A DNA stretch of 27,268 nucleotides from Myxococcota bacterium (GCA_963676915.2 CAXXVK010000002.1:1-27268); one strand, 5' to 3'. Shown: positions 3,121 through 20,274, counted from the first letter of the stretch. The notes: a model not told the origin generated them from the letters alone. Program-made: numbers and translations.

Positions 3121-3164
3121 CGATACAAAACGGTTCAAACCCGAATTAGTCGGGACAAAACCGC

Positions 3165-3920: not shown

Positions 3921-4085
3921 GATGTTCCTCCGTTGAAACGGTAGTATTTCTTACCCACTCAATACCTGTTGAAAAGCGACATTCGTTATCCGGCGAATGG
4001 TTTTTGCCGGATGGTCGTCTGCTTTATAACAGAATTGTGCGGACTTGAAAACCCCGAAAGCGACAGGAGGTTGCCAAAAGAGAAC

Positions 4086-5303
4086 TCACGTATGATGGTT
4101 TACGGCCTGTTTCAGAAACGGGTCTTTCAAGGGAATCGGATTGTGTCGCTTCATCGAGGCGGAAAACACCAGATAAAATGCTCCGGCAAATCCTAAAAAT
4201 ACAAGAAATTCCACCCACGGAACATGGGCGTGGGAACCATGCCCGCCGTGACCGCCGACCGCCGGTGCGACAAGCAGAAACAGGTGGAAAAACTGCGCCA
4301 GCAGCACCAATGACGACAGCACCACCACCGCCACAGGATGACGTTTGACATGCCGCGAGGTCAACACCACAAAGGGAATCACGAATTTCACGAGTGGCAG
4401 AGCGATCATGTACGGCAACCAGCCGTTGGAACCTCTAGATAGGAAATACAGGGTTTCTTCGGGAAGATTTCCGTACCAGATCAGCAAAAACTGGCAAAAA
4501 TAGATATAGGCCCAAAATCCGGTAAAGGCATACATCATTTTCGCCACATCGTGCAGGTGATTTTCGTTGACGAAGCCTTCAAGCCTGCCGGTCAGAATGA
4601 ACCACGCCGCTACCAAAGACATAAATGCAAGACCGGTCTGCATCATGTCGGTAAACGTCATAACGGCATACATCGTCGAAAACCAGTGCGGTTCCAGCGA
4701 CATCAGAAACAGGTAGCTCAACAGGGTAAAACTCAGCGCAAACAGCACGAGAAACACCGCCCCCAGTTTCCAGTTCGCAAATGTCAGTTTTACATCTCCG
4801 GTCGTATCCTGGCGACGAGAATTGCGGTTCATCAGCAGATTGAACACAAGATAGATGGCGAAACTGATCGCAATGAATACGTAAAACGCGGTCATATTGA
4901 GAAACGGTTCCTTATGCCGCAACAGCTCATCGGCTTGCACCGCTTCATGATGCGTCCAATGGTACAGAGAATGCGCACCCAGCCCCAACAACAACCCCGA
5001 AAGCGCCGCAAAAGGCAACCAGGCCGCCATGGCTTCCGAAACCCTACGCAACGGCACCGACCAGACGCCTTTGGAAAGATATTGGATGGCATTCCAGGCC
5101 GTTCCGAATACTCCCAGGCTGAAAAAATAGAACATTGCCACGAGATAGGCTGTCCAGGCTCGCGCAGGATCTCCGCTTAAAAGCACCCAGGCAAAGGCTC
5201 CCGCTCCGACAAACAGCAACAGAATCGCCAAAAAAGTCCCCGAAAGAGGAAAAGCGATCTTTTGCGGGGCTTCAAGTCGTCTTGCTTCGCTATGGTGGCT
5301 CAT
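4086..5303 (-). CDS. actF: Alternative complex III membrane subunit ActF
   Basis: About 10 hydrophobic segments; MSLEPHWFSTM and FWAYIYFCQFLLIWYGNLPEET motifs; last gene after actA-E. Confidence 0.88.
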   Translation of the reverse strand: MSHHSEARRLEAPQKIAFPLSGTFLAILLLFVGAGAFAWVLLSGDPARAWTAYLVAMFYFFSLGVFGTAWNAIQYLSKGVWSVPLRRVSEAMAAWLPFAALSGLLLGLGAHSLYHWTHHEAVQADELLRHKEPFLNMTAFYVFIAISFAIYLVFNLLMNRNSRRQDTTGDVKLTFANWKLGAVFLVLFALSFTLLSYLFLMSLEPHWFSTMYAVMTFTDMMQTGLAFMSLVAAWFILTGRLEGFVNENHLHDVAKMMYAFTGFWAYIYFCQFLLIWYGNLPEETLYFLSRGSNGWLPYMIALPLVKFVIPFVVLTSRHVKRHPVAVVVLSSLVLLAQFFHLFLLVAPAVGGHGGHGSHAHVPWVEFLVFLGFAGAFYLVFSASMKRHNPIPLKDPFLKQAVNHHT

Positions 5304-5315
5304 CCGTTTCTCCGT

Positions 5316-6029
5316 TTACGGGGTCGGTGTCTGTAACGCAGGTTGATCCTCGGCGGCATCTTCAGCGGCTTTTCGAGCCTCTTCCTCGGCAGCTTTGCGT
5401 TCGGCTTCCCAAAACGCCAGGTCGGCTTCCGTCGGTGGTGCAACCGGAAGTGTGGCTTGAAGGTTGCGAATGTAATGCACTACGGACCAGAGGTCTTCAG
5501 GTTCCAACTGTGTGGAATGGCTAGGCATCGATGCCTGCCCCCTCATTGGAACGTGGAAAATCCGAGCGTCGGTATAGTCGCGTACCCGTTTTCGCATCAG
5601 ATGTGGAGGTTTGGGAAAAAGTTGTGTCAGATTGCCATCCCCCGCCGCCTGTTTTCCGTGACAGACGATGCAAACGTTTTCGAAAACGGTTTTGCCTTCG
5701 AGAATGCGCTCCGGCGTGCTTTTGTACGGATTATGAAGCGCAAGCGCGGCTTTCTCGGCTTCATCCTGTACGAAAGGATAAACAAACTGATCGAGAGCCA
5801 CAGTGCCTTCAGGAGGTTTTCTCATCCCGACGGGATTCGGACCGAACAGGTCCGTCCGCTGCGGTTTCAGCTTGGGTTGGTCGGCCATATCGGCCCAGTT
5901 GAACTCGTAAAACGGCTCGGCGCCTGCCGGGATTCCCGGCTCGTATCCGGGAACATCTCCCGGTCCGCAGGACCATCCCGCCACGGCGGAAAAAGCCAAC
6001 AGAAAAACCGCCGGTAAACTACGCCACAT
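5316..6029 (-). CDS. actE: Alternative complex III monoheme cytochrome c lipoprotein ActE
   Basis: Signal peptide ending in Cys (AVAGWSC), DMADQPKLKPQ...MRKPPEGTVA, a single CIVCH, and MPSH distal Met. ATG 6029 lies downstream of GGAGG. Confidence 0.88.
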   Translation of the reverse strand: MWRSLPAVFLLAFSAVAGWSCGPGDVPGYEPGIPAGAEPFYEFNWADMADQPKLKPQRTDLFGPNPVGMRKPPEGTVALDQFVYPFVQDEAEKAALALHNPYKSTPERILEGKTVFENVCIVCHGKQAAGDGNLTQLFPKPPHLMRKRVRDYTDARIFHVPMRGQASMPSHSTQLEPEDLWSVVHYIRNLQATLPVAPPTEADLAFWEAERKAAEEEARKAAEDAAEDQPALQTPTP

Positions 6030-6573
6030 CGTCAACCTCCTCGTCGATCACACGAACGCCGTGCAGGTTCAAATCTTTCAGGAATCCAGCCGCTTTCTCG
6101 GCGTCGAACTCGGGATCGTCGGCGCTGATCCACAACACGAACTTGTCGATCGTCGCTCCCGTACGAACCTTCAGAGACGGTGGCTGGGGAACCGTCCATT
6201 TCTTTCCGGCGAATATGGCAATCACCGCCGTCCCGATCCCCGCAAAAAGCACCATCAATTCGAAAGTGATCGGGATGAACGACGGCCAGGCATTGAAGGG
6301 TTTTCCACCGAAATTCATCGGCCAGAGAAACACCATGATTCCCACCATCATCACCTGCGCCGCGAGAATCCCCGAGGCGGCCAACCCCGCCGTAATCCAC
6401 GGAACCCAGGAACGCTTCAGCCCCATCGCTTCGTCCATGCCATGAACCGGAAACGGTGTCAGGACATCGAAACGGGTATACTTGGAATCTCGCATTTTCT
6501 GCGCCGCCTGAAGCGCTTCGTCCGGTGTACAAACATATCCGCTTACACCAAAAATCGCGTCGGATCGCGCCAT
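6019..6573 (-). CDS. actD: Alternative complex III subunit ActD (DUF3341)
   Basis: TPFPVHGMDEAMG, WPMNFGGKP, FIPITFELMVLFA; two TM helices. Confidence 0.92.
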   Translation of the reverse strand: MARSDAIFGVSGYVCTPDEALQAAQKMRDSKYTRFDVLTPFPVHGMDEAMGLKRSWVPWITAGLAASGILAAQVMMVGIMVFLWPMNFGGKPFNAWPSFIPITFELMVLFAGIGTAVIAIFAGKKWTVPQPPSLKVRTGATIDKFVLWISADDPEFDAEKAAGFLKDLNLHGVRVIDEEVDDVA

Positions 6574-6574
6574 G

Positions 6575-8056
6575 TTACGCCTCCTCGTTCGAATCGGACT
6601 CGGGTTTGCATCGCGCCACGTCAGGGTCCATTACGCCCTTGACTTCGGACATCGCGATGGACGGCAAGAGCCGCACGAACAGCAGAAACAGCGTGAAAAA
6701 CAGCCCGAACGATCCGATCAGGATCGACCAGTCGTAAAACGTCATGTGATACATACCCCAGCTCGACGGCAGAAAGTCGCGATGCAGCGAGGTCACGATA
6801 ATCACGTAGCGCTCGAACCACATACCGACGTTCACCAGAATGGCAATGATCAGTAAGGTTACGGGGTTGCGGCGGATTTTCTTGAACCAGAAAAACTGAG
6901 GAATGATGGCGTTGCAGGTGAACATGATGAAATACGACCAGCCATAGGGACCGAATGCCCGGTTGCGGAAAACGAAGCCCTCGTACTCGCTACCGGAGTA
7001 CCAGGCGATGAAGAATTCGGTCGAATACGCCAGTCCCACCAACATGCCGGTCAGCATGATGATTTTCGCCATCGCTTCCATGTGGTTGATCGTAATGTAG
7101 TTTTTCAGGTTAAAAACATGACGCATGAAAACCATCAGCGTCAGCACCATCGCGAAACCGGAGAAAATCGCCCCGATGACAAAGTACGGAGGGAAAATCG
7201 TCGTGTGCCACCCGGGCATAATCGACGTAGCGAAGTCGAACGATACGATGGTATGCACAGAAAATACAAGCGGCGTCGCCAGGGCGGCAAGAATGAGATA
7301 GGCCGCTTCGTAGTGCCTCCACGCACGGTTGGAGCCGGTCCAGCCCAAAGACAGCAAATGATAAAGCTTGCGCCGCCACGGATGCGTGGCGCGGTCGCGA
7401 ATCGTCGCCAGATCGGGCAGCAATCCCACATACCAGAACACCGCCGAGATCGTGCCGTAGGTCGAAATCGCGAAAATATCCCAGGCCAGTGCACTATTGA
7501 AGTTGATCCACAGAGGTCCACGATCGTTGGGTAAAGGCATCAGCCAATAGGCGAACCAGGGACGCCCTAAATGGATAATGGGAAAAATCCCCGCACAGGC
7601 CACGGCGAACAGAGTCATCGCTTCCGCCGAACGGTTGATCGCCGTACGCCACTTTTGTCTGAAAAGAAACAGAACGGCGGAAATCAGCGTTCCGGCATGG
7701 CCGATACCGATCCAGAACACGAAATTGACGATGAACGTTCCCCACCCTACCGGGTGATTGATCCCAACGACTCCTTCACCCGTGTAAAACAGCGTCGCCA
7801 GGGAAAAGAATAACAATCCCAACATACTGCCCGCAATGATGAAACAGATCCACCACCGCCTCGTGGGAAAATTCTCGACGTGGAAGGCGATATCTCCATC
7901 CACGTCCGCATAGGTTTTGTTTCCCGTAACCAGCGGTTCGGTGATCAATTCGCTACCACCCAGCAAGCCGCCGCCCTCTACAGTGATGGGTACTCCGTGG
8001 AGATCGGCATCTCCGGTCACGGTTTCATAAGGACTTTTCATGGTTTCACTTTTCAT
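6575..8056 (-). CDS. actC: Alternative complex III quinol-oxidising NrfD-family subunit ActC
   Basis: [73 protein letters not shown]. Confidence 0.95.
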
Positions 8057-11000
8057 TGCGGACCTTCGTCAAGTAGGCGATGGACGGAATGACATTGGTA
8101 ACTTCGAGAATCTTCATCGCTCGCGAGCTTTGAGAGGTGCGAGAAACTTTTGCATCGGAATCCAGCACGTTACCGAAAACGATGGCTTTCGAGGGACAGG
8201 CCGCCTGACAGGCGGTTACGACATCGCCATCTCTGAGTTTACCGGTACGACCTTCACGACGCGCCTTCTCACGAGCATCCATGATGCGTTGCACGCAGAA
8301 CGAACATTTTTCCATCACGCCCCGGTAACGAACCGTTACCTCTGGGTTGTTTTTCATCTGCATTTTTCCGCGTACGTTGAGTGTCGCGTGTCGCTTGATT
8401 TCGGGAACCAGCACCTTGAACAACAGGTTAGGACGCGGTTTTTGATAATCGAACCAATTGAAGCGTCGCACTTTGAATGGACAATTGTTCGCACAATATC
8501 GGGTTCCCACACAGCGGTTGTAAATCTGCTGGTTCAGTCCGTCCGCACTGTGCATCGTTGCCACGAATGGGCAGACCGTCTCGCAGGGTGCATTCTCGCA
8601 ATGCTGGCAAAGCATCGGCTGAAACAGGGTTTTCGGCTCCTCGACAACTTCTTGAGGCGCATCGAAGACCGAATCATCCCAACCGCCTTTCTTTTCGGGA
8701 GCATCGTAATAGCGATCGATGCGCATCCAGGACATCTCGCGGCCATCCAACACGCCTTTTTTCCCGACTACCGGAATGTTGTTTTCGGCCTGACAGGCGA
8801 TCACGCAGTTTCCGCACCCCGTACAACGAGAGAGATCGATGGACATCCCCCAGCGAATATCTTTGTAGTCATGCTCGGGCCAGATCGATTCCCCACCCGG
8901 AATCTGCCCCGTCCCGGCTTTGGGATCGGCAAGATATTCGGCAAGCGTTGCAGCGGGTACCAACGGACGCCGTACCCGGTCGAGGACATCGCCACCTTGA
9001 CAAATCGCCAGCGGTTCGTTTCCTTTGGCTTTTTTCACGGTCACGGGAATACCGGAGCGTACGAGCGTATCCTCGGAGATGGCCAAAGATTGAAACAAAT
9101 TGCGCCCCACATCGGAGCCAATATCCCCAACGTGGGTCCGTCCCCATCCCAGAGGTACGGCGAGCACGTCCCGATGCATTCCGGCCTGACGAAACGCCGG
9201 TATTTTCAACGTGTTTCCGTTGAATCCGATTTCGACAAGATCTCCGTTTTGCAGTCCCATTTCATCAAAGCGACTCGGGGCCAACGCCAGCCATTCCCCC
9301 CATGCCACTCGGCTGATGGGATCGGGAAATTCCAGTAGCCATCCGTTGTTCCCCTGACTGCCATCATACAATGCGTGGCTCGGGAAGAATTCCAGCTCCA
9401 GCCCATCTTTCGACGAGATCCGACAGTTCTTGAATGTCTCAAAAGCCACTGGATTGAATCCGGCCAGAGGACTTCTGCGCCCGCCCAGATCGATCCAGCC
9501 TTTTTTCAACGCATCCTGCCAGGCTTGCTCCGAATCGGGACGCATCCTGAAAAAGTGCTCGATCCAGTACGATTTCACGTAATGATACGCCGGAGAATGT
9601 ACGAGCGCTTTTTTTCCCTCGGTGTCGAGCGCCGCCCGGTAGGCTGCATCGAGTCGCCCTTTCTCACCGGCCAATGCCGCCCAGGAAATCAGCAGGTCCA
9701 ACATGCCGTAGGTTTTGTAAAGTGGACGGATCGAAGGCTGCACGACACCATACAAACCTCGATCCAAACCGGCATCTCCCCAGGATTCCAGCGGATGACT
9801 GAGCGCTGCGAGATAGTCGGCCTGACGAGCGGTTTCATCCACACGATCGGCCAGAGAAACCACGAGCTTCGCTTTTTTCATCGCCTCGGCGAATTTCAGC
9901 GAGGCGGGAGCGTCGAATACCGGGTTGACCCCGGCAATCAACAACAGGTCGATACGCCCGGCATTCAATTCATCCGTTAGCGTTTCAAGCCGTTTGACAC
10001 CTCCCGAACGAAGAGATTTGCTATAGCGGGGATCAAAAGTTTTCGAAAAATTCCCCAGCGTGTAATTGAGCAGGTTAACGGCGGTTTCCAACGTTTCGCC
10101 CTGTTCGGACGCCGTAGCCGTAGCCCCTGAAATAACGAGGCTTTTTCCCTGATGATCCACCAGTTCATCGGCGAGACGAGAAAAGATTTTCGCATCCACG
10201 CCGATAGCCTTGGCGATACTTTCCGCTGAAAACGGTTCCAATACCGATTGCACACCTTGCAGTTTGGCGGCTGGACCGATCCGCCGTTTGGCAACCAGTT
10301 CGTAGACCAATGCCATCGCTGCCGCAGGAAGATGGCTGGAACGCACCCGAATGCGCTCGTCCGCGTTGGCTCCCGTCAGCGACAAACGCCCCTCGAACGC
10401 TACGAATCGCCCCATCCTCTCCTTTTTTCGGTCAGGATCTCGGCTATCGGCATAGTCCTCATTCATGCCGCTTTCGGGATAATCGAGAAACTCCGCGCCA
10501 AAGCCCACAATCAATTCGGCCTTGTCGAAGCGGGGCAGCGGTTTGGGAACCTCACCGAAACATTTCGTCCAAGCTCTTGCTTCGTGATCCTCCTCCAGCA
10601 TCGAAACATGAAAGACCCGAGCCTCGAAAGCCTGTGAAAACTCCTGCAACACGCTTGCCGAAGCCGGTCCTCCATCTTGACCGACCAACAACGCGATTTT
10701 TCCCCGGCTCTCTTTGAGCGCTGCCGTCACTTTTTTCGTCACGGTCTCCCAGTCCACCGGCTTGGGCAATCCTTTCGAGCGACGAACCGAAAGCGGTCCC
10801 TGGGCGCGATCAGGATCGTAGAGATCGAGAATTGCGGCCTGAGCGCGAAGATCCGGGGTTTTGACACGCGGATGCGAAGGATTGGCCTCAACCAGAATCG
10901 GGCGGCCCTCTCTCGTTCGAACAAGAACGGGAAAACCGCCCAGCGTCGTGGAATAAACCATCGGCTTACCGATCTTCCGCTGTTCCTCCGGTCGATCGAC

Positions 11001-11204
11001 ATAGGGAACGATCGGCTCTACCGGCATCTGGCACCCGGCGCCGGCCAACGCCATCGCGGCGGAGGCCGCCCCGGCCATACGGAAAAACTCGCGTCGATTC
11101 AATGAAAGCGGTTCGCTGCCATCGGGAAATTCCACCCGGTGGACGATCTCTTCTCCGGCTTTTGTCGCGTTCACCGCTTCGTCTTTTACTAGATGTTTGG
11201 GCAT
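8046..11204 (-). CDS. actB: Alternative complex III subunit ActB (Tat-exported molybdopterin-oxidoreductase-like domain plus Fe-S domain)
   Basis: Tat motif NRREFF with Cys at the end of the signal (ALAGAGC); [15 protein letters not shown]-terminal Fe-S motifs [42 protein letters not shown]...CQAACP. Start at ATG 11204 (upstream GAGG) avoids overlap with actA. Confidence 0.93.
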
Positions 11205-11232
11205 TTCGTCTTCCTCGGTCGTAGCCGTGTTT

Positions 11233-11865
11233 CTAACGATGACAAATGATGCAATCGAACGGACCTTGCATGTCGTCTTTCCAGTGGCATTCCAGGCACC
11301 AGCCCATGTTGAAGGGGTTCTGCACCCGCACGATTTCGTCTTTTTCGACTTCGCCGTGACAGTCCACGCAATCCACTTTCTGCTTTCCTTCATCATTCAA
11401 CGCGGTCATGTGAGCGGCATGGTTGAAATAGACAAAATCCGGCAGGTCATGGACCTTGATCCACTCGATGGGGCGGTTCGCGTCGTAGTATTCCTTCAGT
11501 TTCAGCACCCATTCCAGATTCTGACCCACCACGGAGTGACAGTTCATGCAGATGTTTTCGGAAGGAATCCCGGCGCTACGGCCTTTGTCCACCATCGTGT
11601 GGCAGTAGCGACAAGGGATTCCCCACCCTCCGTTGTTGATTTTCTCACCGTTGGCGTCGGTTCCCCACTGCGGCTCTCCCGCCATCAGCTTGTGGTTGAA
11701 CTTGATCGGCTGGTACGGCTCATAGCCCTCACGCGGGGAGGAACATCCCACCCACGCTAGCAGCCACAGTGCCATCATCGCCAACACAGCGCCTCGGAGC
11801 CTCGTTTGCCTTCGTGTCGATTTCATCGAAAACCTGTCTCGCTTGAAAAGTGACATCGTGCTCAT
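11233..11865 (-). CDS. actA: Alternative complex III pentaheme cytochrome c ActA
   Basis: Five CxxCH motifs (CRYCH, CMNCH, CVDCH, CLECH, CIICH); GYEPYQPIKFNH, WIKVHDLPDFVYFNH, MGWC. Confidence 0.93.
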   Translation of the reverse strand: MSTMSLFKRDRFSMKSTRRQTRLRGAVLAMMALWLLAWVGCSSPREGYEPYQPIKFNHKLMAGEPQWGTDANGEKINNGGWGIPCRYCHTMVDKGRSAGIPSENICMNCHSVVGQNLEWVLKLKEYYDANRPIEWIKVHDLPDFVYFNHAAHMTALNDEGKQKVDCVDCHGEVEKDEIVRVQNPFNMGWCLECHWKDDMQGPFDCIICHR

Positions 11866-12080
11866 TGCCTCTCTCCCGTCGCGTCGGAAGGATTTGGCGT
11901 ACTTTCTTCGTTTTTGTTCGTTTCTTTGCCGCTTAAGTGTTCGTCATCATCGAACAGCATCCGTAAGGCCGGAGTTTTCAGGTCGTCGAACTGACCGGAC
12001 CGCACCGACCAGTGAAACAGCACCACGAAAAGCCCCACCAGAAGCAGGCTGATCGGCAATAAAAAAAACACCGCGTCCAT
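11862..12080 (-). CDS. ccoS: cbb3 oxidase assembly protein CcoS/FixS
   Basis: LLPISLLL...WSVRSGQFDDLKTPALRMLFDD signature. Confidence 0.93.
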   Translation of the reverse strand: MDAVFFLLPISLLLVGLFVVLFHWSVRSGQFDDLKTPALRMLFDDDEHLSGKETNKNEESTPNPSDATGERQ

Positions 12081-12092
12081 AGAATCTTCCTT

Positions 12093-14591
12093 TCACACCA
12101 CCGCAACCCTTTTCACAGGAACAAACGAACGCCCGAGCACCCCGTGGGAAATGACGGTCAACGAGCTGATCGGCATCAGCACGGCGGCGGCCAGCGGATC
12201 GATTTTCCCCATCATCGCAAGCGTGGCGCAAACAGCATTGTAAGCCAGTGAAAACAGCAAGTTACGATAGATAATCCGCAACGTGCGCCGCGACCCTTCG
12301 AGCAACTCCCACAAAGGCTCCAATCCGGGTTGGGTCAACGTGACATGCGCCGCCCCAATGGAAGCGCCGCTGCCACCCTGCACCGCAACACCCACATCCG
12401 CCTCGGCCAGTGCGGCGGCGTCGTTGACGCCATCGCCGACCATCATCACCGACACGTCGGCATTCGAGGACGTTTGCTTGAAGGTCTGTACGAGTTCGTG
12501 TTTTTCTTCGGGTAACAGCCCGCCTCGAATCGTCCGCTCGTCGAACCCAAGGGAACCTCCCACCGTTTCCGCCACAAGAGGTGAATCCCCGGAAAACAGG
12601 TGCAAATTCCACCCCAGCGCTCGTATTCGGTCGAGTACGCTTTTCGCTTCGGGACGAATCGGATCGGCAAATCCAGCCAAAGCTTTGACCTCACCAGCCA
12701 CCGCAACGACGACCGGCGTTCGAGCTTGACCGGCCAGCTTGTCGCCCCTATTTCTCCACACTTCGGACACGTCGATTCCCAACGATTCCAGGTAGCTGGA
12801 ACGACCGACTGCAACGTGGACATTCCCAACCTTTCCTTCAATACCCTGCCCCAGACTTTCACGTACGTCTCGGACATCTTCAGAAAGCTCCTTCAGGAAG
12901 GAAAATCGCGTAACAAAAGCCCGTGCCAGCGGGTGGGAAGACTGCCGTTCCACCGCAAGCACCAAGCGCGCCGTTTCATCGTCACCTTCCCACGCGACGA
13001 GTTCGAGACGTCCACCGGTCAGAGTGCCGGTTTTGTCGAACACCACGCGGCGCACCCTGCGGAGACGTTCCAACACATCGGCATCCTTGATGTAGATCCC
13101 AGCCTTGGCGGCTCGCGCCAACGCTACCGAAACGGCCACCGGCGTCGCCAATCCCAACGCACAAGGACAGGTGACCACCAGCAGAGCGATGACGTGCTCC
13201 ATCATTTTCGCGGGATCGTACACCCACCAGATTCCAGCCGTCACCGCCGCGAGAACCAACACTGCGCTTACGAAATAATGACTGACGGCATCGGCAACCT
13301 TGACGATCCTCGCCCGCCTGCCCGAGGCTTCCTCAACAAGCTTCATCAATCGCCCCAACCTCGTATCTTCGCCTTCCGCATCCACGCGGACCACCAACCG
13401 CCCCCCGAGATTCACCGCTCCGGCATAAACATCGGCCCCGGACTCCACACGGACGGGACGAGATTCTCCGGTGAGAATCGAGGTATCCAAGCTGCTTTGC
13501 CCTTCGATCACCCTGCCATCGGCGGGAGAAACGTCACCGGACAGCAACTCCACCTCGTCACCGGTGACAAGAGCTTCGATTGGAACTTCCTCGAACGTCC
13601 CGTTTTCGTTACTCTTTCGGGCGAACTCCGCTCTTCCGGCGCGTTGCATCCGTTCGGACAATTCCACCGCCGCTCGCTGGGATCTCTGTTGCAGGTATCG
13701 CCCGGCAAGCAACAAGGCGACAAGTGCGGAGGTTGAATCGAAGTAAATCGGTCCTTCGCCGGAAAGCGTCGAAACCGTGCTGTATAGAAAACCGCTTAAA
13801 ATCCCTAAAGAAATCGGAAGATCCATATGGGGAAACCGGTTTTTCAATCCAGCCAGCGCAGCAGAGAAAAACGGCAGCGCCGCATAAAAAACCACAGGAA
13901 GGCACAACAGAAAACTCACCCAGGTGAAAAACTCCCGGAAACGGGGGGCGATCCCCTCGTATTCCCCGGCATAGAGAGCGATTTCGATCAACATGATGTT
14001 CATCGCACAAGCCGCCGCCACACCGAGCCGCACCAGCAACCCGCGTTCTTCTCGTTTGCGCAGCATCGCCACATCCCCGGAACGCACGGCATGGGGTGCA
14101 TAACCATAGTCGTCGAGACGCCGGGCGATCTCGGAAAGGTCCGTTTGGTCCGGGTTCCACTCGATTTCCGCCATCGAACGTGGGAGGTCGAGACGCAGAC
14201 GGATCACGCCATCGAGATCGTCACCGATTTTTTCCACAAGCCAGACGCAGGCCGCGCAATGCACGCCCTCTAAAAAAAGCCGGATGCGTTTGTTACCGTT
14301 CGGACGTATTTCAACGTGTTTTTGCTCGAAAAGATCGTTGTCGAAATCGGTAAAGCGCCGCCCACTGACCGTCGCCGGAACGTTTTCACGAGAATCGGCG
14401 CGACGCAGACGATAGTAGTTCTGACCCAAGCCCTCGGAATGCAGAAAACCGTAGACGTGCCGACACCCGTTGCAACAGAATTGCAATTCGTCACCGGGAC
14501 GCATTTCCTCACCCGGAACCGGCGTTCCGCAATGACTGCACCGGGCTTTCGCCATCGGTTCATGCAATCGGGCTGTTTTCGTCAACGTCAT
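12093..14591 (-). CDS. ccoI: Cu-transporting P1B-type ATPase CcoI/FixI
   Basis: N-terminal CSHC...FCCNGC, HMA motif GVHCAAC, TGES, CPC, DKTGT, GDGVND, YN in TM; located in the cco cluster. Confidence 0.93.
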   Translation of the reverse strand: MTLTKTARLHEPMAKARCSHCGTPVPGEEMRPGDELQFCCNGCRHVYGFLHSEGLGQNYYRLRRADSRENVPATVSGRRFTDFDNDLFEQKHVEIRPNGNKRIRLFLEGVHCAACVWLVEKIGDDLDGVIRLRLDLPRSMAEIEWNPDQTDLSEIARRLDDYGYAPHAVRSGDVAMLRKREERGLLVRLGVAAACAMNIMLIEIALYAGEYEGIAPRFREFFTWVSFLLCLPVVFYAALPFFSAALAGLKNRFPHMDLPISLGILSGFLYSTVSTLSGEGPIYFDSTSALVALLLAGRYLQQRSQRAAVELSERMQRAGRAEFARKSNENGTFEEVPIEALVTGDEVELLSGDVSPADGRVIEGQSSLDTSILTGESRPVRVESGADVYAGAVNLGGRLVVRVDAEGEDTRLGRLMKLVEEASGRRARIVKVADAVSHYFVSAVLVLAAVTAGIWWVYDPAKMMEHVIALLVVTCPCALGLATPVAVSVALARAAKAGIYIKDADVLERLRRVRRVVFDKTGTLTGGRLELVAWEGDDETARLVLAVERQSSHPLARAFVTRFSFLKELSEDVRDVRESLGQGIEGKVGNVHVAVGRSSYLESLGIDVSEVWRNRGDKLAGQARTPVVVAVAGEVKALAGFADPIRPEAKSVLDRIRALGWNLHLFSGDSPLVAETVGGSLGFDERTIRGGLLPEEKHELVQTFKQTSSNADVSVMMVGDGVNDAAALAEADVGVAVQGGSGASIGAAHVTLTQPGLEPLWELLEGSRRTLRIIYRNLLFSLAYNAVCATLAMMGKIDPLAAAVLMPISSLTVISHGVLGRSFVPVKRVAVV

Positions 14592-14594
14592 TCG

Positions 14595-15134
14595 TCAGGA
14601 CTCCGGTCCTTGTCTCACCACGATCCGTTGGGTATCCAAAAATTCGAGTTCCCCTCGCTTCGCCTTGACATGTACTTGCCACTGACCAAGCGCAGGAAAC
14701 GTCAGCATCACCCGGTAATGACCGGGATCGTGGGGCAATTCGATCAACGCCCCTTGGCTGTTCATGCGGGTATCCGAAGGTCGAACCGCCAGCACATCAC
14801 CCGCAAGCCCGCTTACCGGCTGCTTTTTTTCGTCCGTTACGATCAAATCGACCGGCCACGGCATCCCCCGCACATACTGTGGTCCCTGAGGAAGCACGAA
14901 CCCTAAATGCCAACCGAGTTGACGGCGAACGTCACGCAAAGCGAGTTCGTCATCCCAGGCCACCGCTTTTTCGTAGTAATTCTCTTCGGGTAACACTACG
15001 CCGGAATTCAACGCGAAATACACCATCGTTCCCTGAACGGACACCATCGCGACAATCGCCAGTGTCAATCCGACCGGCCAGCGGTAATAGGATAGCCATT
15101 GCCGAAACGTTTTGAGTTCTTTCGCGTCGTTCAT
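14595..15134 (-). CDS. ccoH: FixH/CcoH-family protein
   Basis: WPVG + TM helix + ENYYEKAVAWD, RPSD...PGHY...GQW; lies between ccoG and ccoI. Confidence 0.85.
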   Translation of the reverse strand: MNDAKELKTFRQWLSYYRWPVGLTLAIVAMVSVQGTMVYFALNSGVVLPEENYYEKAVAWDDELALRDVRRQLGWHLGFVLPQGPQYVRGMPWPVDLIVTDEKKQPVSGLAGDVLAVRPSDTRMNSQGALIELPHDPGHYRVMLTFPALGQWQVHVKAKRGELEFLDTQRIVVRQGPES

Positions 15135-15142
15135 GGTCCTTC

Positions 15143-16564
15143 CTAACGGTACGGTCCCAACAAAAGAAATTCCTTGGTGAGATCCAAGCCTTTGTCCGAC
15201 TTCACCCGAAACAAGGCGTTCAAACGTCCGTTCTTGAAAACATCTCTTCCCAGCGTCACCACGAGATCAAGCGAACCGTGGGCTTGAGGATCGAGTACAA
15301 AAGGAGAAATACTTGCTGTAAACTGGGCGTTTTTCGGCTCGACCAATTCCAATTCGAAGCTTTGCGTTTCATCCGTGCGATTGGTCAGGTGTGCCACAAG
15401 CTGATTGGCCACATCCCCCGTCGGCAGGATCTTGTACACATCACGCCCGGTGCGCATCAGTTGAACATCCGCCGGTGCCCGAAACATAAGCAGGTAAGCG
15501 AACGTCGAATAAATCGTGAGAGAAACGAGAGCGTACAGCACCACACGAGGCCGCAGCCAGCGGGTCTTTCCGCCATCGAGCTCCTTGAGCGAGGTATAGC
15601 CAATCAATCCCGGAGGCTTGCCGATACGCTGCATCACCGAATCGCAGGCATCGATACATTGGGCGCACCCGATACATTCCATTTGCAGGCCACGACGAAT
15701 ATCGATGCCTGTGGGACAGGTTTTTACGCAGCGGGTGCAATCGATGCAATCGCCTGCCGGAACCTCGGAGTTTTCGCCGGTCAGCCGAATCGATCCGCGA
15801 GGCTCTCCCCGCTTGGGGTTATAGCCGATAATCTGCGTGTCTTTGTCGTACAGCAGCGTCTGTAAACGCCCGTACGGACACGTTACGGTACACATCTGCT
15901 CGCGGAAATACGTGAAATCGAACAATACGAGTGCCGTCGTAAACGCCACGGCGAAAAAGACACCTTTGTGTTCGGCAGGCGAGGAGCCAAGCTGTTCCAT
16001 CAAGGAATCCCACCCGATGAAATACGCAACGAACGTATGCGCCAGCAAGGCGCTAAACGCAAAAAACACCATAAGCTTCAAAAGCTTACGCATCCGCGAG
16101 GCGGCATCCGGCGGTTGATTCTCCCGGCGTTTTCGCAAGTAAGACGGACCTTCGAAAAACTGTTCTATCGGTCGGTAAATAAACTCCAGGTACACCGGCT
16201 GCGGACACAAAAACCCGCACCAGACCCGACCGAAAACAGAGGTTGCGATAAAGACCGTCCAGACCACCGACAATCCCAGTACCATCAGGATCACGTTATC
16301 GGTGGGGTGAAACGTCGCACCGAATACCGAAAACTGCTGCTTGGCCAGATGGAAAAACACCAACGGCTTACCACCAAGCGTGAAATGGGGCGCGAGGAGA
16401 AAAAACGCGATCAACCCCAACCCAATCCACTTTCGAAGCGAAAGGAAGCGTCCCCGGCTCGTCAACGGATGCACCCAGTTCCGTCCGCCACCGACCTTGA
16501 TGGTCGCAAGCATCTCGTCCTGCGTCGCCTGTGGAAACAAATGAGGTTTGGAGTTTCTCGCCAT
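15143..16564 (-). CDS. ccoG: cbb3 accessory polyferredoxin / cupric reductase CcoG/FixG
   Basis: GRVWCGFLCPQ, REQMCTVTCPYGRLQ, RGEPRG, CIDCTRCVKTCP, CIGCAQCIDAC. Confidence 0.95.
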   Translation of the reverse strand: MARNSKPHLFPQATQDEMLATIKVGGGRNWVHPLTSRGRFLSLRKWIGLGLIAFFLLAPHFTLGGKPLVFFHLAKQQFSVFGATFHPTDNVILMVLGLSVVWTVFIATSVFGRVWCGFLCPQPVYLEFIYRPIEQFFEGPSYLRKRRENQPPDAASRMRKLLKLMVFFAFSALLAHTFVAYFIGWDSLMEQLGSSPAEHKGVFFAVAFTTALVLFDFTYFREQMCTVTCPYGRLQTLLYDKDTQIIGYNPKRGEPRGSIRLTGENSEVPAGDCIDCTRCVKTCPTGIDIRRGLQMECIGCAQCIDACDSVMQRIGKPPGLIGYTSLKELDGGKTRWLRPRVVLYALVSLTIYSTFAYLLMFRAPADVQLMRTGRDVYKILPTGDVANQLVAHLTNRTDETQSFELELVEPKNAQFTASISPFVLDPQAHGSLDLVVTLGRDVFKNGRLNALFRVKSDKGLDLTKEFLLLGPYR

Positions 16565-16602
16565 GTCGTTACGTCGTAAAAATCCTATTTCATTTCATAA
16601 AG

Positions 16603-17196
16603 TTACGGTGCTTTCTCGGGAAGTTTTTCCATCGTTACAGGCGTTCCCTGGGGTGCCCGAGCATTCGGGGGATTCGTTCCCTGGATACTACGGACATACG
16701 CCGCCAGTCCGGTAATGACCTCAGGCTTGAAAGCTCTCCCCCACGGCGGCATTCCCTTGGCAGGAACGCCTTTGGTTATCGTGGTCCAGATTTGCGCGAC
16801 CTCGCCGCCGTGAATCCAGAAAGGATCGGTCAGGTTGGGACCGATCAAACCCTGAGCCTGATCTCCATGGCAGGCCGCACAGGTTTTGATGAATTGATCT
16901 TTTCCCAACGCCAGGGCTTTTTCATCGACGGCAGCGGCCAGCAACTCGCTAGTGGTTGGCGGCACAACCGGATTGGCTACGTAATAATCCTGAATGGCTT
17001 TGTAATCGGTCAGCAATTCCGCCTGATAGCCGGACTGAATCGAGCTACCATAATTGAAGCCATAATAGAAAATGTAGAAGATGGCGAAAATGATCGTCCC
17101 GTACAGCAGCCACATGAACCATTCGGGAAACGGATTGTCGTACTCCCGAATCCCATCGGAGTCATGATCAAGCAATTTATCTTTGAATTCAGCCAT
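16603..17196 (-). CDS. ccoP: cbb3 oxidase subunit III CcoP, short monoheme form
   Basis: FixP N-terminus HDSDGIREYDNPFPEW, one CAACH, GPNLTD, KGMPPW. Confidence 0.92.
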   Translation of the reverse strand: MAEFKDKLLDHDSDGIREYDNPFPEWFMWLLYGTIIFAIFYIFYYGFNYGSSIQSGYQAELLTDYKAIQDYYVANPVVPPTTSELLAAAVDEKALALGKDQFIKTCAACHGDQAQGLIGPNLTDPFWIHGGEVAQIWTTITKGVPAKGMPPWGRAFKPEVITGLAAYVRSIQGTNPPNARAPQGTPVTMEKLPEKAP

Positions 17197-17206
17197 TTAC
17201 AAGACC

Positions 17207-17404
17207 TCACTCCCCTTCTTCGGCAGGACTGCCACCGTCGTTTCCCTTCGGCTCATCCAAAGGAATTCGCCCCCACTGCCGGTACTTGCTGCGATCTCCG
17301 GAAAAGATGGATACGACGACAAAGACAAACGCCAGCACAAACAACACCAAACCGATCACGGCATAGATTTCCATTCCGGCTCCGGCTACCAGTTCGCTTT
17401 TCAT
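17207..17404 (-). CDS. ccoQ: cbb3 oxidase small subunit CcoQ (65 aa)
   Basis: MKSELV...GLVLFVLAFVFVVV...RIPLDE; single TM; ATG at 17404 overlaps the ccoNO stop (ATGA). Confidence 0.85.
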   Translation of the reverse strand: MKSELVAGAGMEIYAVIGLVLFVLAFVFVVVSIFSGDRSKYRQWGRIPLDEPKGNDGGSPAEEGE

Positions 17405-19641
17405 GGTGTCCCGCTTTCCGTTTGGACACTCAACGGTTGCAAGCCGGTTTCCCGCCAGCGGATATCCATTCCCAAGCGCTGCAAGTAGGCGGTAAGAGCC
17501 ATGATTTCTTTTTTCGCCAACCCTTCGGGACCGGTCTGCGCCACCACTTCCTCGGATATGGCATTCGCCTGCTGCTCGATCGATTCGAGCGCGTGTTCGA
17601 TATCCGCGTCCGAATACGGCACGCCGAGACGAACCATCGTCCTCATTTTGGCCTGAATATCGGACAGGTCGAGATCGTCTTCCAGAATATGCGGAAAGGC
17701 GGGCATCAGCGATCCGGGGGTGGTACTGGGCGGAAGCTCCATATGCCGTACGTGCCACAGGTGGGGATATTTTTCACCCACCCGGTGCAGGTCGGGACCG
17801 GTTCGCTTCGACCCCCACTGGAACGGATGATCGTAGACGAATTCTCCCGGCTTGGAATATTCGCCGTAACGTTCCGTTTCATGGCGGAAGGGTCGGACCA
17901 TCTGCGAATGACACAGGTAACAACCTTCCCGAAGGTAGATATCCCTACCGAGCAATTCCAACGGCGTATACGGTTTTACGCTGGCGATTTTCGGCACGTT
18001 GTCTCCGGCCAGAAACAGCGGAACCGCTTCGACCAGCGAGCCTATCGATACCGCGATCACGACCAGCACGGTAAACGTCAACGGCATGCGCTCCAACGCC
18101 CTGTGAAATCCATGGCTGAGCCAATGCTGAACGCGGTACAAAGCAGCATCCATACTGCGGGGCCCGTGCGCGAGTGAAGCCTCGGGAATCGCCGGACCGG
18201 TTTCGCGCTCCAGAGCGGGGGCGCGGACCTCTTCTTCCACGGCGTAGCCTTCAGGTGCGCTGAAAATCGTTCGATACAGGTTGTAGGTCATCAGGAATAC
18301 GCCGCCGAGATAGAAAATCCCACCGACCAGCCGCAACCAGTACATCGGCGTCAGTTTCAAGGCGGTTTCGATGAATTCCGGATAGACCAGACGGCCATCC
18401 GCTTCGAAAGCGCTCCACATCAAACCTTCCCAGATCCCCGCCACCCACATGGCAACCATATAGGAAACGATGCCAATGGTCCCGATCCAGAAGTGAATTT
18501 CAGCCATCTTGACGCTATGCAGTTTGGTTTTCCACAGGCGAGGCACCATCCAATACAACGCACCGAAGGTAATGAAGCCATTCCACCCCAACACCCCGGA
18601 ATGAACGTGGCCGATGGTCCAGTCGGTATAGTGGCTCAACGCATTGACCGATTTGACCGCCAGCACCGGTCCTTCGAAAGTGGACATACCGTAAAACGTG
18701 ACACCCAGCATGAGGAATTTCAGGATCGGGTCTTCCCGTACTTTGTTCCAAGCGCCTCGCAAGGTGAACAGGCCGTTGATCATTCCGCCCCAGCTCGGCA
18801 CCCAGAGCACTACCGAAAACACCATCCCCAACGTGCTCGCCCAGCCGGGAAGTGCCGTATAATGGAGATGATGCGGACCGGCCCAGATGTACACGAAGAT
18901 CAGCGCCCAGAAATGCAGAATCGAAAGCTGGTAGCTGAACACGGGCCTTTCGGCGGCCTTGGGAAGGTAATAATACATCAACCCGAGAAACGGAGTGGTA
19001 AAGACGAAGGCCACGGCATTGTGTCCGTACCACCACTGAATCAGAGCATCGTGTACCCCTGAATACATGGAGTAACTACCCAGCCAGGAATACGGAATCG
19101 CCAGAGAATTGAAAATATGAAGCATCGCCACAGTGATGATGGTGGCGATATAGAACCAGATCGCAACGTACAAATGAGGTTCGCGGCGTTTGAGAATGGT
19201 GCCGAAAAAGTTGATCGCGAACACCACCCACAAAATCGTCAACACGACATCCAGACTCCACGGCAGCTCGGCGTATTCCTTGGCCTGAGTGTGGCCGGTC
19301 AACAAGCACAACGCCCCGGCAACGATCAATAGCTGCCATCCCCAGAAATGGATTTTCGACAACAGGTCGCTAAACATTCTCGCCTTGAGCAACCGTTGCG
19401 ACGAGTAATAGACCCCGGCGAAGATGATATTGCCGCAGAAAGCGAAAATCACTGCATTGGTGTGGATGGGGCGCAAACGACCAAAGGTCAGGTATGGTGC
19501 AAGATTGAGATCGGGCATGAATAAAAGCGAGGCGACCACCACCCCCATACTCATCCCGACAATCGCCCAAAATACCGTCGCGTGAACAAACAGCCGGACC
19601 GTCTTGTCATCGTAACGAAACGTCTCGATTCTCTCACTCAT
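17401..19641 (-). CDS. ccoN: Fused cbb3 oxidase subunits I and II (CcoN-CcoO)
   Basis: GRLRPIHTN, KEYAE, QWWYGHNAV, WAGPHHLH, STFEG, GHVHSG, then the CcoO domain YLREGCYLCHSQMVRP, WGSKRTGPDL, SLMP. ATG 19641 preferred over GTG 19653. Confidence 0.97.
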   Translation of the reverse strand: MSERIETFRYDDKTVRLFVHATVFWAIVGMSMGVVVASLLFMPDLNLAPYLTFGRLRPIHTNAVIFAFCGNIIFAGVYYSSQRLLKARMFSDLLSKIHFWGWQLLIVAGALCLLTGHTQAKEYAELPWSLDVVLTILWVVFAINFFGTILKRREPHLYVAIWFYIATIITVAMLHIFNSLAIPYSWLGSYSMYSGVHDALIQWWYGHNAVAFVFTTPFLGLMYYYLPKAAERPVFSYQLSILHFWALIFVYIWAGPHHLHYTALPGWASTLGMVFSVVLWVPSWGGMINGLFTLRGAWNKVREDPILKFLMLGVTFYGMSTFEGPVLAVKSVNALSHYTDWTIGHVHSGVLGWNGFITFGALYWMVPRLWKTKLHSVKMAEIHFWIGTIGIVSYMVAMWVAGIWEGLMWSAFEADGRLVYPEFIETALKLTPMYWLRLVGGIFYLGGVFLMTYNLYRTIFSAPEGYAVEEEVRAPALERETGPAIPEASLAHGPRSMDAALYRVQHWLSHGFHRALERMPLTFTVLVVIAVSIGSLVEAVPLFLAGDNVPKIASVKPYTPLELLGRDIYLREGCYLCHSQMVRPFRHETERYGEYSKPGEFVYDHPFQWGSKRTGPDLHRVGEKYPHLWHVRHMELPPSTTPGSLMPAFPHILEDDLDLSDIQAKMRTMVRLGVPYSDADIEHALESIEQQANAISEEVVAQTGPEGLAKKEIMALTAYLQRLGMDIRWRETGLQPLSVQTESGTP

Positions 19642-19991
19642 CGCGTTCCCCACCTGGAAAGAATAACTTCCATCGACTTCCTAGATATTCCGCCACAACT
19701 TTGATTCACGTCCGGATCATCGAATGCAAATTTGATCCATTCCGTGATGGTTCGCTACGAACGCTGTCAACCGTGCGGTACATCCATGCTGTAAAGGGCT
19801 GTCATTGCAAAGAATAATCACTTTATCATAGCCATATCGATTGGGCAACCATCCCCAAGAAAACAAAGCAAAGCTTCAATAGATTTCAGGAGTAGATCCC
19901 TAAAAAACCGTTTTTACTCATCCTCAATTATTCGAAGCGTCGAGTCGTCTTGATAAATCATCTTGTGCCAAACACCTGAAACACTTTAAAT

Positions 19992-20005
19992 TTAATCAAT
20001 ATCAA
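19992..20005. promoter_or_regulatory. Candidate FNR/CRP-family binding box upstream of ccoNO
   Basis: TTAAT-CAAT-ATCAA matches TTGAT-N4-ATCAA at 9 of 10 positions; AT-rich context lowers specificity. Confidence 0.4.
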
Positions 20006-20192
20006 CTAGCAATAGCTGTTCTTAATAATTTGTCCAAATTTATGGGTCAAAAAAGACAGGTATCCGTAAAAACGATACTAACAGTGTAACTCGCCCTGGA
20101 TACACCGCCATGTTTCAAATCATTGGGAAACGTTTTTTTGTGGAATCTTCAACGATGACAACCAAAGATTCGACATCGTAGGTACAAAAATG

Positions 20193-20247
20193 GGAACAAT
20201 GTTCCGTTTTTCTAGCACAATGTTCCCCATTTTCGGAACAATGTGCG
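20193..20247. repeat. Three phased palindromic motifs (GGAACA-A-TGTTCC consensus) at 21-bp period; probable regulator binding array
   Basis: The ACAATGT core starts at 20196, 20217 and 20238. Copies are GGAACAATGTTCC, AGCACAATGTTCC and GGAACAATGTGCG. Confidence 0.75.
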
Positions 20248-20274
20248 GGTTGTCACCGCGAAAACCGGCAGAAA

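Follow-up and report, generated by a model that had tools for sequence, protein, structure and literature searches.

A cbb3 oxidase, its assembly genes and Alternative Complex III encoded head to tail in a Myxococcota bacterium: a probable menaquinol-to-O2 module

Thirteen genes on the minus strand of the window (the whole 27,268-nucleotide stretch of Myxococcota DNA analysed here) run in the order ccoNO(fused)-Q-P-G-H-I-S-actA-B-C-D-E-F over 15.6 kb (4086-19641). We read them as one co-expressed menaquinol-to-O2 module, in which three known units lie head to tail on one strand, and give this reading a probability of about 0.7. The first unit would be a high-affinity C-type (cbb3) haem-copper oxidase composed of the CcoNO fusion, a CcoQ-like protein and a monohaem CcoP; the second would comprise CcoG, H, I and S, dedicated to copper supply and assembly of that oxidase; the third would be a six-subunit Alternative Complex III (ACIII), ActA to ActF. 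Gene clusters of ACIII with an oxidase are termed "superoperons" (PMC8407424), and the adjacency of act and haem-copper oxidase genes on one strand places the locus among them. The features are as follows.

19642-20274, minus strand: probable promoter/leader of the unit, non-coding, 633 bp, where GC falls to 0.48
17401-19641, minus strand: ccoNO, fused cbb3 subunits I and II, 746 aa from ATG 19641
17207-17404, minus strand: ccoQ-like small membrane protein, 65 aa; position and size fit CcoQ
16603-17196, minus strand: ccoP, monohaem form, 197 aa; Pfam FixP_N (60 bits) and one Cytochrome_CBB3
15143-16564, minus strand: ccoG, assembly protein with 4Fe-4S domains; Pfam Fer4_18 and FixG_C
14595-15134, minus strand: ccoH, cbb3 assembly factor; Pfam FixH 71 bits (cutoff 23)
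12093-14591, minus strand: ccoI, copper-translocating P1B-type ATPase; TIGR01511 421.3 bits (cutoff 397)
11862-12080, minus strand: ccoS, 72 aa; TIGR00847 59.7 bits (cutoff 28.35), Pfam FixS
11233-11865, minus strand: actA, pentahaem cytochrome c with signal peptide and lipobox; five CXXCH
8046-11204, minus strand: actB, fused molybdopterin-like (B1) and Fe-S (B2) subunit, 1052 aa; Pfam Molybdopterin and Fer4 families
6575-8056, minus strand: actC, NrfD-like quinol-binding membrane subunit; Pfam NrfD
6019-6573, minus strand: actD; Pfam PF11821 (ActD) 166.4 bits (cutoff 25.7)
5316-6035, minus strand: actE, monohaem cytochrome c, probable lipoprotein; one CXXCH
4086-5303, minus strand: actF, second NrfD-like membrane subunit; PDB 6f0k_F, E = 2.4e-53
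3980-3999, minus strand: weak terminator-like hairpin, possible end of the unit, about 87 nt past the actF stop

All 13 genes named by the first-pass annotation were recovered with Pfam, NCBIfam and solved ACIII structures. Family searches and these structures assign 12 of them; the ccoQ-like gene is the only one weakly identified (Pfam FixQ, E = 1.5e-4, 22.1 bits, under the cutoff of 29). The ccoNO product, with an alternative opening at GTG 19653, scores 1160.7 bits against the bifunctional subunit I/II family NF011053 (cutoff 1080), and both its ccoN part (TIGR00780, 685.7 bits, cutoff 583.15) and its ccoO part (TIGR00781, 243.9 bits, cutoff 200.65) exceed the equivalog cutoffs; its Pfam domains are COX1 and FixO, with a single CXXCH. 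CcoP reaches 99.9 bits against TIGR00782, under the cutoff of 179.95, and carries one CXXCH, which sets it outside the dihaem class: judged from its sequence, it is a monohaem variant. The assembly set is complete, with all four CcoGHIS proteins encoded, CcoG scoring 392.3 bits against TIGR02745 (cutoff 316.7) and CcoI showing E1-E2_ATPase, Hydrolase, ATPase-cat_bd and HMA domains.

Every ACIII subunit matches chains of the solved structures 6F0K and 6BTM. The best PDB matches are subunit A chains for ActA (8k9e_A, 6btm_A, 6f0k_A and 6lod_A; E = 5e-30 to 9e-25), 6lod_B, 6f0k_B, 8k9e_B and 6btm_B for ActB (E = 7e-151 to 6e-129, with 6lod_B and 6f0k_B at 5e-142 or lower), and 6f0k_E, 6lod_E and 6btm_E for ActE (E = 6e-13 to 4e-11); ActF, for which the Pfam search returned no match, also matches 6btm_F, 8k9e_F and 6lod_F. 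The first ATG given for actB by the ORF finder, 11396, would overlap actA; ATG 11204 follows a GAGGAAG motif, and a protein started there has both the Tat motif RREFF and a lipobox near its N-terminus. The six genes follow the canonical A-B-C-D-E-F order on one strand, as in most of the best 80 surveyed ACIII loci, and ActC is 56-78% identical to the ActC proteins of those loci (best 80 of at least 589 stretches).

Could the act genes instead encode a Qrc-like quinone reductase, or an ACIII engaged in reverse electron transport, the role suggested for iron oxidisers, and not a quinol oxidase feeding cbb3? NCBIfam ranks QrcA, QrcB and QrcC first for ActA and ActB, and reverse electron transport by ACIII has been proposed in Sideroxydans (PMC8788666). 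The Qrc scores, however, lie far under their cutoffs (72 versus 180, 121 versus 440 and 185 versus 400), solved ACIII chains are matched much better by all six subunits, and ActD (PF11821), ActE and ActF are all present. We know of no counterpart of these last three in the four-subunit QrcABCD. Furthermore, actB is fused here, as opposed to the split actB1/B2 described for iron-oxidiser clusters (PMC4643136), and the act genes share one unit with an O2 reductase, so that we regard this alternative as very improbable.

The gene content bears out the earlier proposal of a complete quinol-to-O2 branch, in which ACIII would act as the donor to this cbb3. Menaquinol would be oxidised in the membrane at the NrfD-like ActC, together with ActF and ActD, and ActB, a lipoprotein exported by Tat, would relay the electrons over its Fe-S clusters to the five haems of ActA. 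From there they could proceed to the lipid-anchored monohaem ActE, or leave straight from ActA. CcoP and CcoO would receive them at periplasmic haems c, and within CcoN they would cross haem b to reach the haem b3-CuB centre, where O2 would be reduced. Such a module would be complete without a separate soluble cytochrome c gene, and transient or two-dimensional transfer between lipid-anchored cytochromes would suffice. The window covers just 27 kb of the genome, so further oxidases, a bc1 complex or soluble cytochromes c may be encoded outside it.

The genes are tightly packed. The successive intervals from ccoNO to actF measure -4, 10, 38, 8, 3, 12, -4, 28, -11, 1, -17 and 12 bp, so the first-pass description of gaps "under 40 bp or overlaps" holds, and Shine-Dalgarno-like motifs stand ahead of the cluster genes. 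The overlap of the ccoS stop with the actA start as ATGA (11862-11865, minus strand), also proposed earlier, can be read directly from the sequence, with a Shine-Dalgarno-like GGGAG for actA inside the 3' end of ccoS; a second ATGA overlap joins the ccoNO stop to the ccoQ start (17401-17404, minus strand). Alternative in-frame ATGs for actA lie at 11856 and 11826, the latter leaving a 36-bp gap, so that its use would abolish the ccoS/actA overlap. The same junction recurs in the Acidobacteriota MAG locus L001, where the order ccoNO-P-G-H-I-S-actA-F is equally tight (ccoQ is absent from that locus): the ATGA overlap lies at 6224-6227, with AAGGAGG 7 nt upstream. Proteins of L001 are 39-78% identical to those of the window (ActC 78%).

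This packing fits the single transcription unit proposed at first pass, of which the single transcript itself is the inferred part. The accompanying statement that no terminator separates the modules holds as far as strong hairpins at the junction are concerned, but three weak terminator-like matches (12142-12127, 12048-12034 and 12045-12032, minus strand; 5-6 pairs, 3 G-C) lie nearby in the end of ccoI and in ccoS; the consensus scan returned 39 such matches in total, compared with 24.1 +/- 5.6 for shuffled sequence. RNA spanning the junction (11800-11960) shows no folding advantage over its shuffled versions (z = +0.35). Sigma-70-like promoter matches on the minus strand number three, two upstream of ccoNO (20256-20229 and 19956-19927) and one inside actB (8524-8495), with none at the ccoP-ccoG gap or the ccoS-actA junction; the host's promoter consensus may differ from the one used, so an internal promoter is conceivable.

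These observations bear on a second reading, in which two or three abutting transcription units (ccoNOQP, ccoGHIS and actABCDEF) have promoters within coding sequence and ACIII, expressed independently, serves several acceptors. The rule in model proteobacteria is for ccoNOQP and ccoGHIS to form separate, though adjacent, operons, and the widest gap here, 38 bp and A+T-rich, falls exactly at ccoP-ccoG; the weak hairpins and the promoter-like match in actB point the same way. Against it stand the lack of promoter-like matches at both junctions and the unstructured RNA at ccoS-actA, as well as the conservation of the 4-bp overlap and of the Shine-Dalgarno motif in ccoS between the window and L001 despite only 56% identity in ActA. 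We consider separate units unlikely. On this sequence evidence of spacing, conserved coupling and a signal-free junction, the genes from ccoN to actF are probably co-transcribed as one module, with translational coupling at ccoS/actA.

A promoter in the 633-bp region upstream of ccoNO would drive the unit; this region holds no Rfam match and no convincing ORF. It also contains an FNR-like box with one mismatch (19992-20005), although the window as a whole has 19 FNR-like matches against 14.1 +/- 3.8 expected, which is no excess over chance. The suggestion of microaerobic regulation therefore draws on general knowledge of cbb3 oxidases and this one weak box, and low-O2 use of the module is plausible at that strength. 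At the other end, 3921-4090 gives a more stable fold than its shuffled versions (z = -2.5), and tpiA follows actF after 165 bp; a far stronger terminator (13 pairs, 3121-3092) lies past tpiA, so that read-through from actF into tpiA is possible.

To gauge how unusual the arrangement is, we surveyed ACIII loci from species-representative genomes. The best 80 of at least 589 stretches were kept, so the rarity estimate refers chiefly to more distantly related ACIII loci; of the 80, 61 had 3 kb or more of readable sequence ahead of actA, and 67 could be read downstream of actF. Within these best 80 of at least 589, cco genes precede actA in one of the 61 loci (L001) and a CuA-type oxidase in three, while CuA-type (Cox2/Cox1) genes follow actF in 46 of the 67 and cbb3 genes in three, all from Verrucomicrobiota (L035, L050 and L058). 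The usual order, with the oxidase downstream of actF, is thus not followed in the window. Four ActC hits of the 74-99% identity class (P0005, P0010, P0031 and P0036) and four CcoNO hits (P0123, P0136, P0156 and P0230) agree in the length of their longest contig (5975757, 38220, 2774005 and 25473 bp). These circumstantial matches suggest that the two genes share a contig, and that ActC and CcoNO lie within 38 kb and 25 kb of each other in two of those four relatives.

The act-cco neighbourhoods mentioned at first pass for Opitutaceae are indeed in print, along with others from verrucomicrobial methanotrophs (PMC8498564, PMC6688271), and there too the genes for ACIII and cbb3 are immediate neighbours. 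The surveyed Verrucomicrobiota loci, however, place actA-F first, followed after 0.5-0.75 kb by separate hits for ccoN and ccoO and a monohaem cytochrome c; their CcoN is 23-31% identical to that of the window, and ccoG, H, I and S had no hits in the three loci. The UvrB encoded in the window points to a lineage other than Verrucomicrobiota, its best named matches being Myxococcales and Thermodesulfobacteriota MAGs (67-70% identical). A quick IQ-TREE phylogeny of ActC (81 rows, SH-aLRT support only) groups the window with L001 (99) and places a Bradymonadales locus as sister to the pair (97); the Verrucomicrobiota act-then-cco loci fall into a separate clade (97). In this sample the window-type linkage, with the oxidase first and ccoGHIS in between, is rare rather than unprecedented, as first proposed, and by this sequence comparison looks like a second, independent joining of two known machines, which suggests recurrent selection for co-expression of both complexes.

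The six act genes of the window are found in unchanged order in the ACIII-caa3/aa3 clusters of Rhodothermus marinus, Flavobacterium johnsoniae and Acidobacteria, which likewise gather complex III and IV genes in one cluster on one strand, but whose oxidase is CuA-type and downstream, whereas that of the window is C-type and upstream, with ccoGHIS between both complexes. Proteobacterial ccoNOQP-ccoGHIS clusters agree with the window in their eight functions and in how these are arranged, N-O-Q-P and then G-H-I-S; the window differs in its ccoN-ccoO fusion, monohaem CcoP and one apparent unit running into act. Overall, we read the arrangement as a variant of the known ACIII-oxidase superoperon in a new gene order. 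The complex III of Rhodobacter capsulatus is a bc1, unrelated to ACIII, and to our knowledge its bc1 and cbb3 genes are not in one operon. Its bc1-cbb3 pairing also links a quinol:cytochrome c oxidoreductase to cbb3 via membrane-anchored cytochromes c, the solved complexes being "engineered" according to a title cited in PMC8361435. The earlier generalization that cbb3 is normally fed by bc1 was overstated: transfer from ACIII through cytochrome c to cbb3 is already a published model for bc1-less organisms, as in the scheme for Melioribacter roseus (PMC5492636).

The proposed ACIII-cbb3 supercomplex fared less well, with no sequence feature favouring stable assembly. Under this model the two complexes form a stable stoichiometric assembly, the operon fusion serves joint assembly and ActE perhaps provides the missing haem domain of CcoP. 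Its attractions are the co-linear, tightly coupled genes kept in L001, the precedent of ACIII-aa3/caa3 supercomplexes whose genes are clustered too (PMC5928083, PMC8552683), the single haem of CcoP and the cytochrome domain PF13442 common to ActE and CcoP. Yet the ACIII-aa3 contact in F. johnsoniae, the only one described, runs via oxidase subunit III (PMC8361435), which is absent from cbb3, and no COX3-family protein was found by Pfam among the 13 gene products. Moreover, CcoP relatives of monohaem length (about 190-225 aa) are frequent among the best 150, so a single haem is not a mark of this arrangement. Gene clustering has been read as a sign of functional coupling (PMC5928083), and co-regulation alone explains it equally well. 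A stable supercomplex is possible and required by no observation; we find it rather doubtful. Less likely still is that a poorly known clade has hard-wired ACIII to cbb3 as a 12-13-gene module that moves between phyla whole and forms an obligate menaquinol oxidase supercomplex with ActE as entry haem. The bins concerned are labelled Acidobacteriota, Myxococcota or "Deltaproteobacteria". If true, it would be the first ACIII-C-type supercomplex and would name the "missing" second ActE partner postulated for F. johnsoniae.

Many bacteria use ACIII in place of a bc1 complex, and the partners of ACIII beyond aa3/caa3 oxidases have so far been inferences. In this locus the link between ACIII and a cbb3 oxidase with its assembly genes extends to a start-stop codon in common; we have met no more direct genomic hint that cbb3 is an ACIII partner. 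Were a common promoter all that links the genes, the locus would be a tidy example of operon fusion and no more. This defined, compact 15.6-kb gene set lets structural biologists ask whether ACIII docks to a C-type oxidase without subunit III.

The 13-gene cluster described in the first-pass annotation, ccoNO-ccoQ-ccoP-ccoG-ccoH-ccoI-ccoS-actA-actB-actC-actD-actE-actF, is present on the minus strand, running from 19641 down to 4086. Its cbb3 oxidase and copper/assembly genes were assigned as follows.

ccoNO, minus strand: fused cbb3 subunit I/II (NCBIfam NF011053, 1160.7 bits; cutoff 1080)
ccoQ-like open reading frame (ORF) of 65 codons, between ccoNO and ccoP: weak FixQ match (22.1 bits, under the cutoff of 29)
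16603–17196, minus strand: CcoP, 197 aa, monohaem, with FixP_N and a single cytochrome c domain (Pfam)
CcoG: TIGR02745 (NCBIfam, 392 bits; cutoff 317)
CcoH: FixH (Pfam)
CcoI: copper P1B-ATPase with an N-terminal metal-binding domain of the FixI type (Pfam/NCBIfam)
CcoS: TIGR00847 (NCBIfam)

CcoNO scores above the cutoffs of both the ccoN and the ccoO equivalog models, and CcoP under the curated ccoP cutoff (NCBIfam). In the Alternative Complex III (ACIII) part, ActA to ActE are recognised by Pfam/NCBIfam family searches, while ActF, which is without a Pfam match, resembles the ActF chain of solved ACIII structures (6f0k_F, E = 2.4e-53); the top PDB matches of ActA, ActB and ActE are ACIII chains of 6F0K, 6BTM, 6LOD and 8K9E. 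Cofactor motifs agree with these identities, namely five CXXCH motifs in ActA and one each in ActE, CcoO and CcoP, together with a twin-arginine motif and a lipobox in ActB. The monohaem CcoP is not peculiar to this arrangement, since many of its best 150 relatives are ~190–225 aa long; others of these 150 measure 280–490 aa, and many of these longer ones match via their C-terminal part, leaving an N-terminal extension.

Successive intergenic gaps are −4, 10, 38, 8, 3, 12, −4, 28, −11, 1, −17 and 12 bp, and Shine–Dalgarno-like motifs lie ahead of the cluster genes. The ATGA in which ccoS ends and actA begins (11862–11865) can be read directly, as first reported, and a second such overlap joins ccoNO to ccoQ (17401–17404). 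The start of actB was corrected to 11204 from the first in-frame ATG (11396); for actA, in-frame ATGs at 11856 and 11826 are alternative starts, and choosing 11826 would give a 36-bp gap. Candidate transcription signals, including those from a consensus scan compared with shuffles, are the following.

20256–20229 and 19956–19927, minus strand: promoter-like matches in the 633 bp of lower GC content ahead of ccoNO
8524–8495, minus strand: promoter-like match within actB
12142–12127, 12048–12034 and 12045–12032: weak terminator-like matches in the ccoI end and ccoS
3121–3092: terminator of 13 pairs, after tpiA

Promoter-like sites over 3000–20800 number 4, against 9.7 ± 3.3 in shuffles, and the scan gave zero promoter-like matches in the ccoP–ccoG gap and at the ccoS–actA junction. 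Terminator-like matches are more numerous than in shuffled sequence (39 against 24.1 ± 5.6), mostly short stems in coding sequence. For the RNA across the ccoS–actA junction, folding does not exceed that of shuffles (z = +0.35); the 165 bp that follow actF form more structure (z = −2.5). The distribution of these signals fits a transcription unit that would start upstream of ccoNO and end after actF or after tpiA. On gene packing and signals, the single operon proposed in the first-pass annotation is well supported, though still putative. Rfam searches returned only the tRNA across the whole window and, at a permissive threshold, zero matches in the region upstream of ccoNO; small ORFs in the 633-bp region included none that was convincing.

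Two kinds of candidate regulatory site lie upstream of ccoNO. The 13-bp palindrome GGAACATTGTTCC and two variants (2 mismatches) form three copies within 20193–20247, beginning at 20193, 20214 and 20235 with a spacing of exactly 21 bp. This trio, just downstream of the gene ending at 20275 and ~550–600 bp upstream of ccoNO, overlaps the promoter-like match at 20256–20229 and looks like a putative operator array. FNR/CRP-type boxes have the consensus TTGAT-N4-ATCAA, from which the box TTGATATTGATTAA at 19992–20005, ~350 bp ahead of the ccoNO start, departs by one mismatch. Matches of this type number 19 window-wide against 14.1 ± 3.8 expected, that is, not above chance, so the box is weak evidence; microaerobic regulation of the cluster is conjecture.

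Elsewhere in the window, 20275–20703 (minus strand) encodes a protein of 142 aa with a match to the archaea-specific threonyl-tRNA synthetase editing domain (PF08915, 119.8 bits); it stands alone, with no synthetase body attached. The UvrB ORF (717–3023, plus strand) has 768 aa, of which family models match from residue 74 only; the stored gene call has 746 aa and most relatives 664–676 aa, so that the surplus reflects an extended N-terminus or a false start called too far upstream. The closest match to UvrB is ~71% identical, and the best named metagenome-assembled genomes (MAGs) are labelled Myxococcales (70%) and Thermodesulfobacteriota (67%). The following genes have no evident link to the respiratory cluster.

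21913–21989, minus strand: tRNA-Met (CAT)
22299–23702, plus strand: GAF-domain protein
23808–24605, minus strand: LolA-like lipoprotein-sorting protein
24660–25319, minus strand: TetR-family regulator

How common the cco-first order is was assessed by aligning the window's ActC with 17 homologues (alignment A1) and scanning a species-representative genome collection. The scan gave at least 589 stretches, 588 of them confirmed, from which the best 80 loci were kept, with flanks typed by tblastn using the 13 window proteins. CcoP, CcoG, CcoH, CcoI and CcoS occur upstream of actA in 1 of these best 80 loci, namely L001, an Acidobacteriota MAG. Upstream flanks were readable in 61 of the 80 (an ActA match and at least 3 kb upstream; ten had no ActA match and nine were too short), and the synteny survey of ccoS–actA adjacency proposed in the first-pass annotation bears out its expectation of rarity: among the best 80, a C-type oxidase precedes actA in 1/61 readable loci, again L001, and a Cox1/Cox2 oxidase in 3/61 (L047, L054 and L066; Ignavibacteriota and Kapaibacteriota). 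Among the 67 of the best 80 with at least 3 kb after actF, Cox2/Cox1 follow actF on the same strand in 46, CcoN and CcoO in three (L035, L050 and L058, all labelled Verrucomicrobiota) and neither oxidase type in 18. Here CuA-type denotes a best tblastn match to Cox1/Cox2 queries from Pfam-labelled loci, with A and B families pooled. Pfam labels were checked for 132 of the 268 extracted ORFs downstream of actF, the remaining ones and all upstream flanks (134 ORFs) being typed by tblastn only; within the 132, CuA-type loci carry COX2, COX1, COX3, SCO1, CtaA and CtaB, and L035 carries FixO and cytochrome c. L035, with ACIII and then cbb3 genes, is titled Akkermansia muciniphila and groups with other Verrucomicrobiota MAGs, and we suspect that its species label is loose. 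Three loci (L008, L036 and L059, at ~11300–12600) have an ActE-matching ORF of 379–428 aa with an ActD-like N-terminus, an ActD–ActE fusion known from Ignavibacterium and Melioribacter in passages of PMC3362086 and PMC5492636; L059 is labelled Chitinophagaceae, yet the ActC tree puts it with Ignavibacteriota.

The ActC of L001 is 78% identical to that of the window, and its gene order, ccoNO-ccoP-ccoG-ccoH-ccoI-ccoS-actA-B-C-D-E-F, is as tight, without ccoQ (ccoP starts 12 bp past the ccoNO stop; 784–930, 815–828). Proteins of the two loci share 39–78% identity, and the L001 stretch examined is much more G+C-rich than the window. L001 also has the ATGA overlap of ccoS stop and actA start (6224–6227), with AAGGAGG 7 nt upstream of actA, within ccoS. 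That the overlap has outlasted this much divergence between the two loci argues for selection on the junction, or at the least for an old fusion. Circumstantial hints that act and cco share a contig elsewhere come from ActC matches P0005, P0010, P0031 and P0036 (74–99% class) and CcoNO matches P0123, P0136, P0156 and P0230, whose longest-contig values agree in pairs: 5,975,757 bases for P0005/P0123, 2,774,005 for P0031/P0156, and only 38,220 for P0010/P0136 and 25,473 for P0036/P0230. Close metagenomic relatives have ActC 80–99% identical, ActC is 75–83% identical across bins labelled Deltaproteobacteria, Thermoanaerobaculia, Myxococcota and Acidobacteriota, and CcoNO matches at ~70% are labelled Thermoanaerobaculia, Vicinamibacterales, Holophagales, Latescibacterota and Gemmatimonadota. 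Labels this mixed suggest that the module or ACIII clade has spread horizontally, or else that bin taxonomy is loose.

A tree built from 81 ActC rows by a quick IQ-TREE search, rooted at the midpoint and with SH-aLRT values as its sole support measure, groups the window with L001 (support 99). Sister to this pair is a Bradymonadales locus (97), and all three sit within a group made up mostly of Bdellovibrionota loci, which lack a neighbouring oxidase. The three Verrucomicrobiota loci with act before cco form their own clade (97), placed elsewhere, and one change suffices for each cbb3-linked state; their CcoN is just 23–31% identical to that of the window. The distance between the two linkages on this tree suggests that they arose separately. 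Refojo et al. (2010) reportedly surveyed the oxidase types beside ACIII. Neither a cco-first order nor ccoGHIS placed between the complexes was described in the full-text literature searched; tables in Refojo et al. (2010) and Sun et al. (2018) may list more. Clustering of act with oxidase genes is textbook for ACIII in passages of PMC5928083 and PMC3362086, the acidobacterial act–oxidase cluster is termed a superoperon in a passage of PMC8407424, and act genes adjoining cbb3 genes are reported for Methylacidiphilum in one of PMC6688271. Passages bearing on cco–act order in the literature searched yield just the verrucomicrobial act-first order and general ACIII–oxidase clustering. The window represents a second, architecturally different and apparently independent ACIII–cbb3 linkage, rare in our sample (1/61 among the best 80 loci), for which we found no description.

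The most economical reading of the cluster is a co-expressed menaquinol-to-O2 branch. Electrons would pass from the ActC quinol site through the ActB Fe–S clusters to the ActA haems, and from there via ActE, or directly, to the c haems of CcoP/CcoO and on to CcoN. The stable ACIII–cbb3 supercomplex put forward in the first-pass annotation is conjecture: the single ACIII–oxidase contact described, in a passage of PMC8361435, is via oxidase subunit III, which is not encoded in the cluster (Pfam). Complex prediction for the soluble part of CcoP (residues 55–197; alignment A2, 41 rows) with ActE (residues 22–237; alignment A3, 46 rows) scored 0.00 in both runs and is counted neither for nor against binding. 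For the co-expressed branch, lipoboxes on ActB and ActE, and in this organism on ActA too, would hold the donor cytochromes at the membrane surface beside membrane-anchored CcoP, a placement that could allow fast two-dimensional electron transfer without a soluble carrier and with no need of a stable supercomplex.
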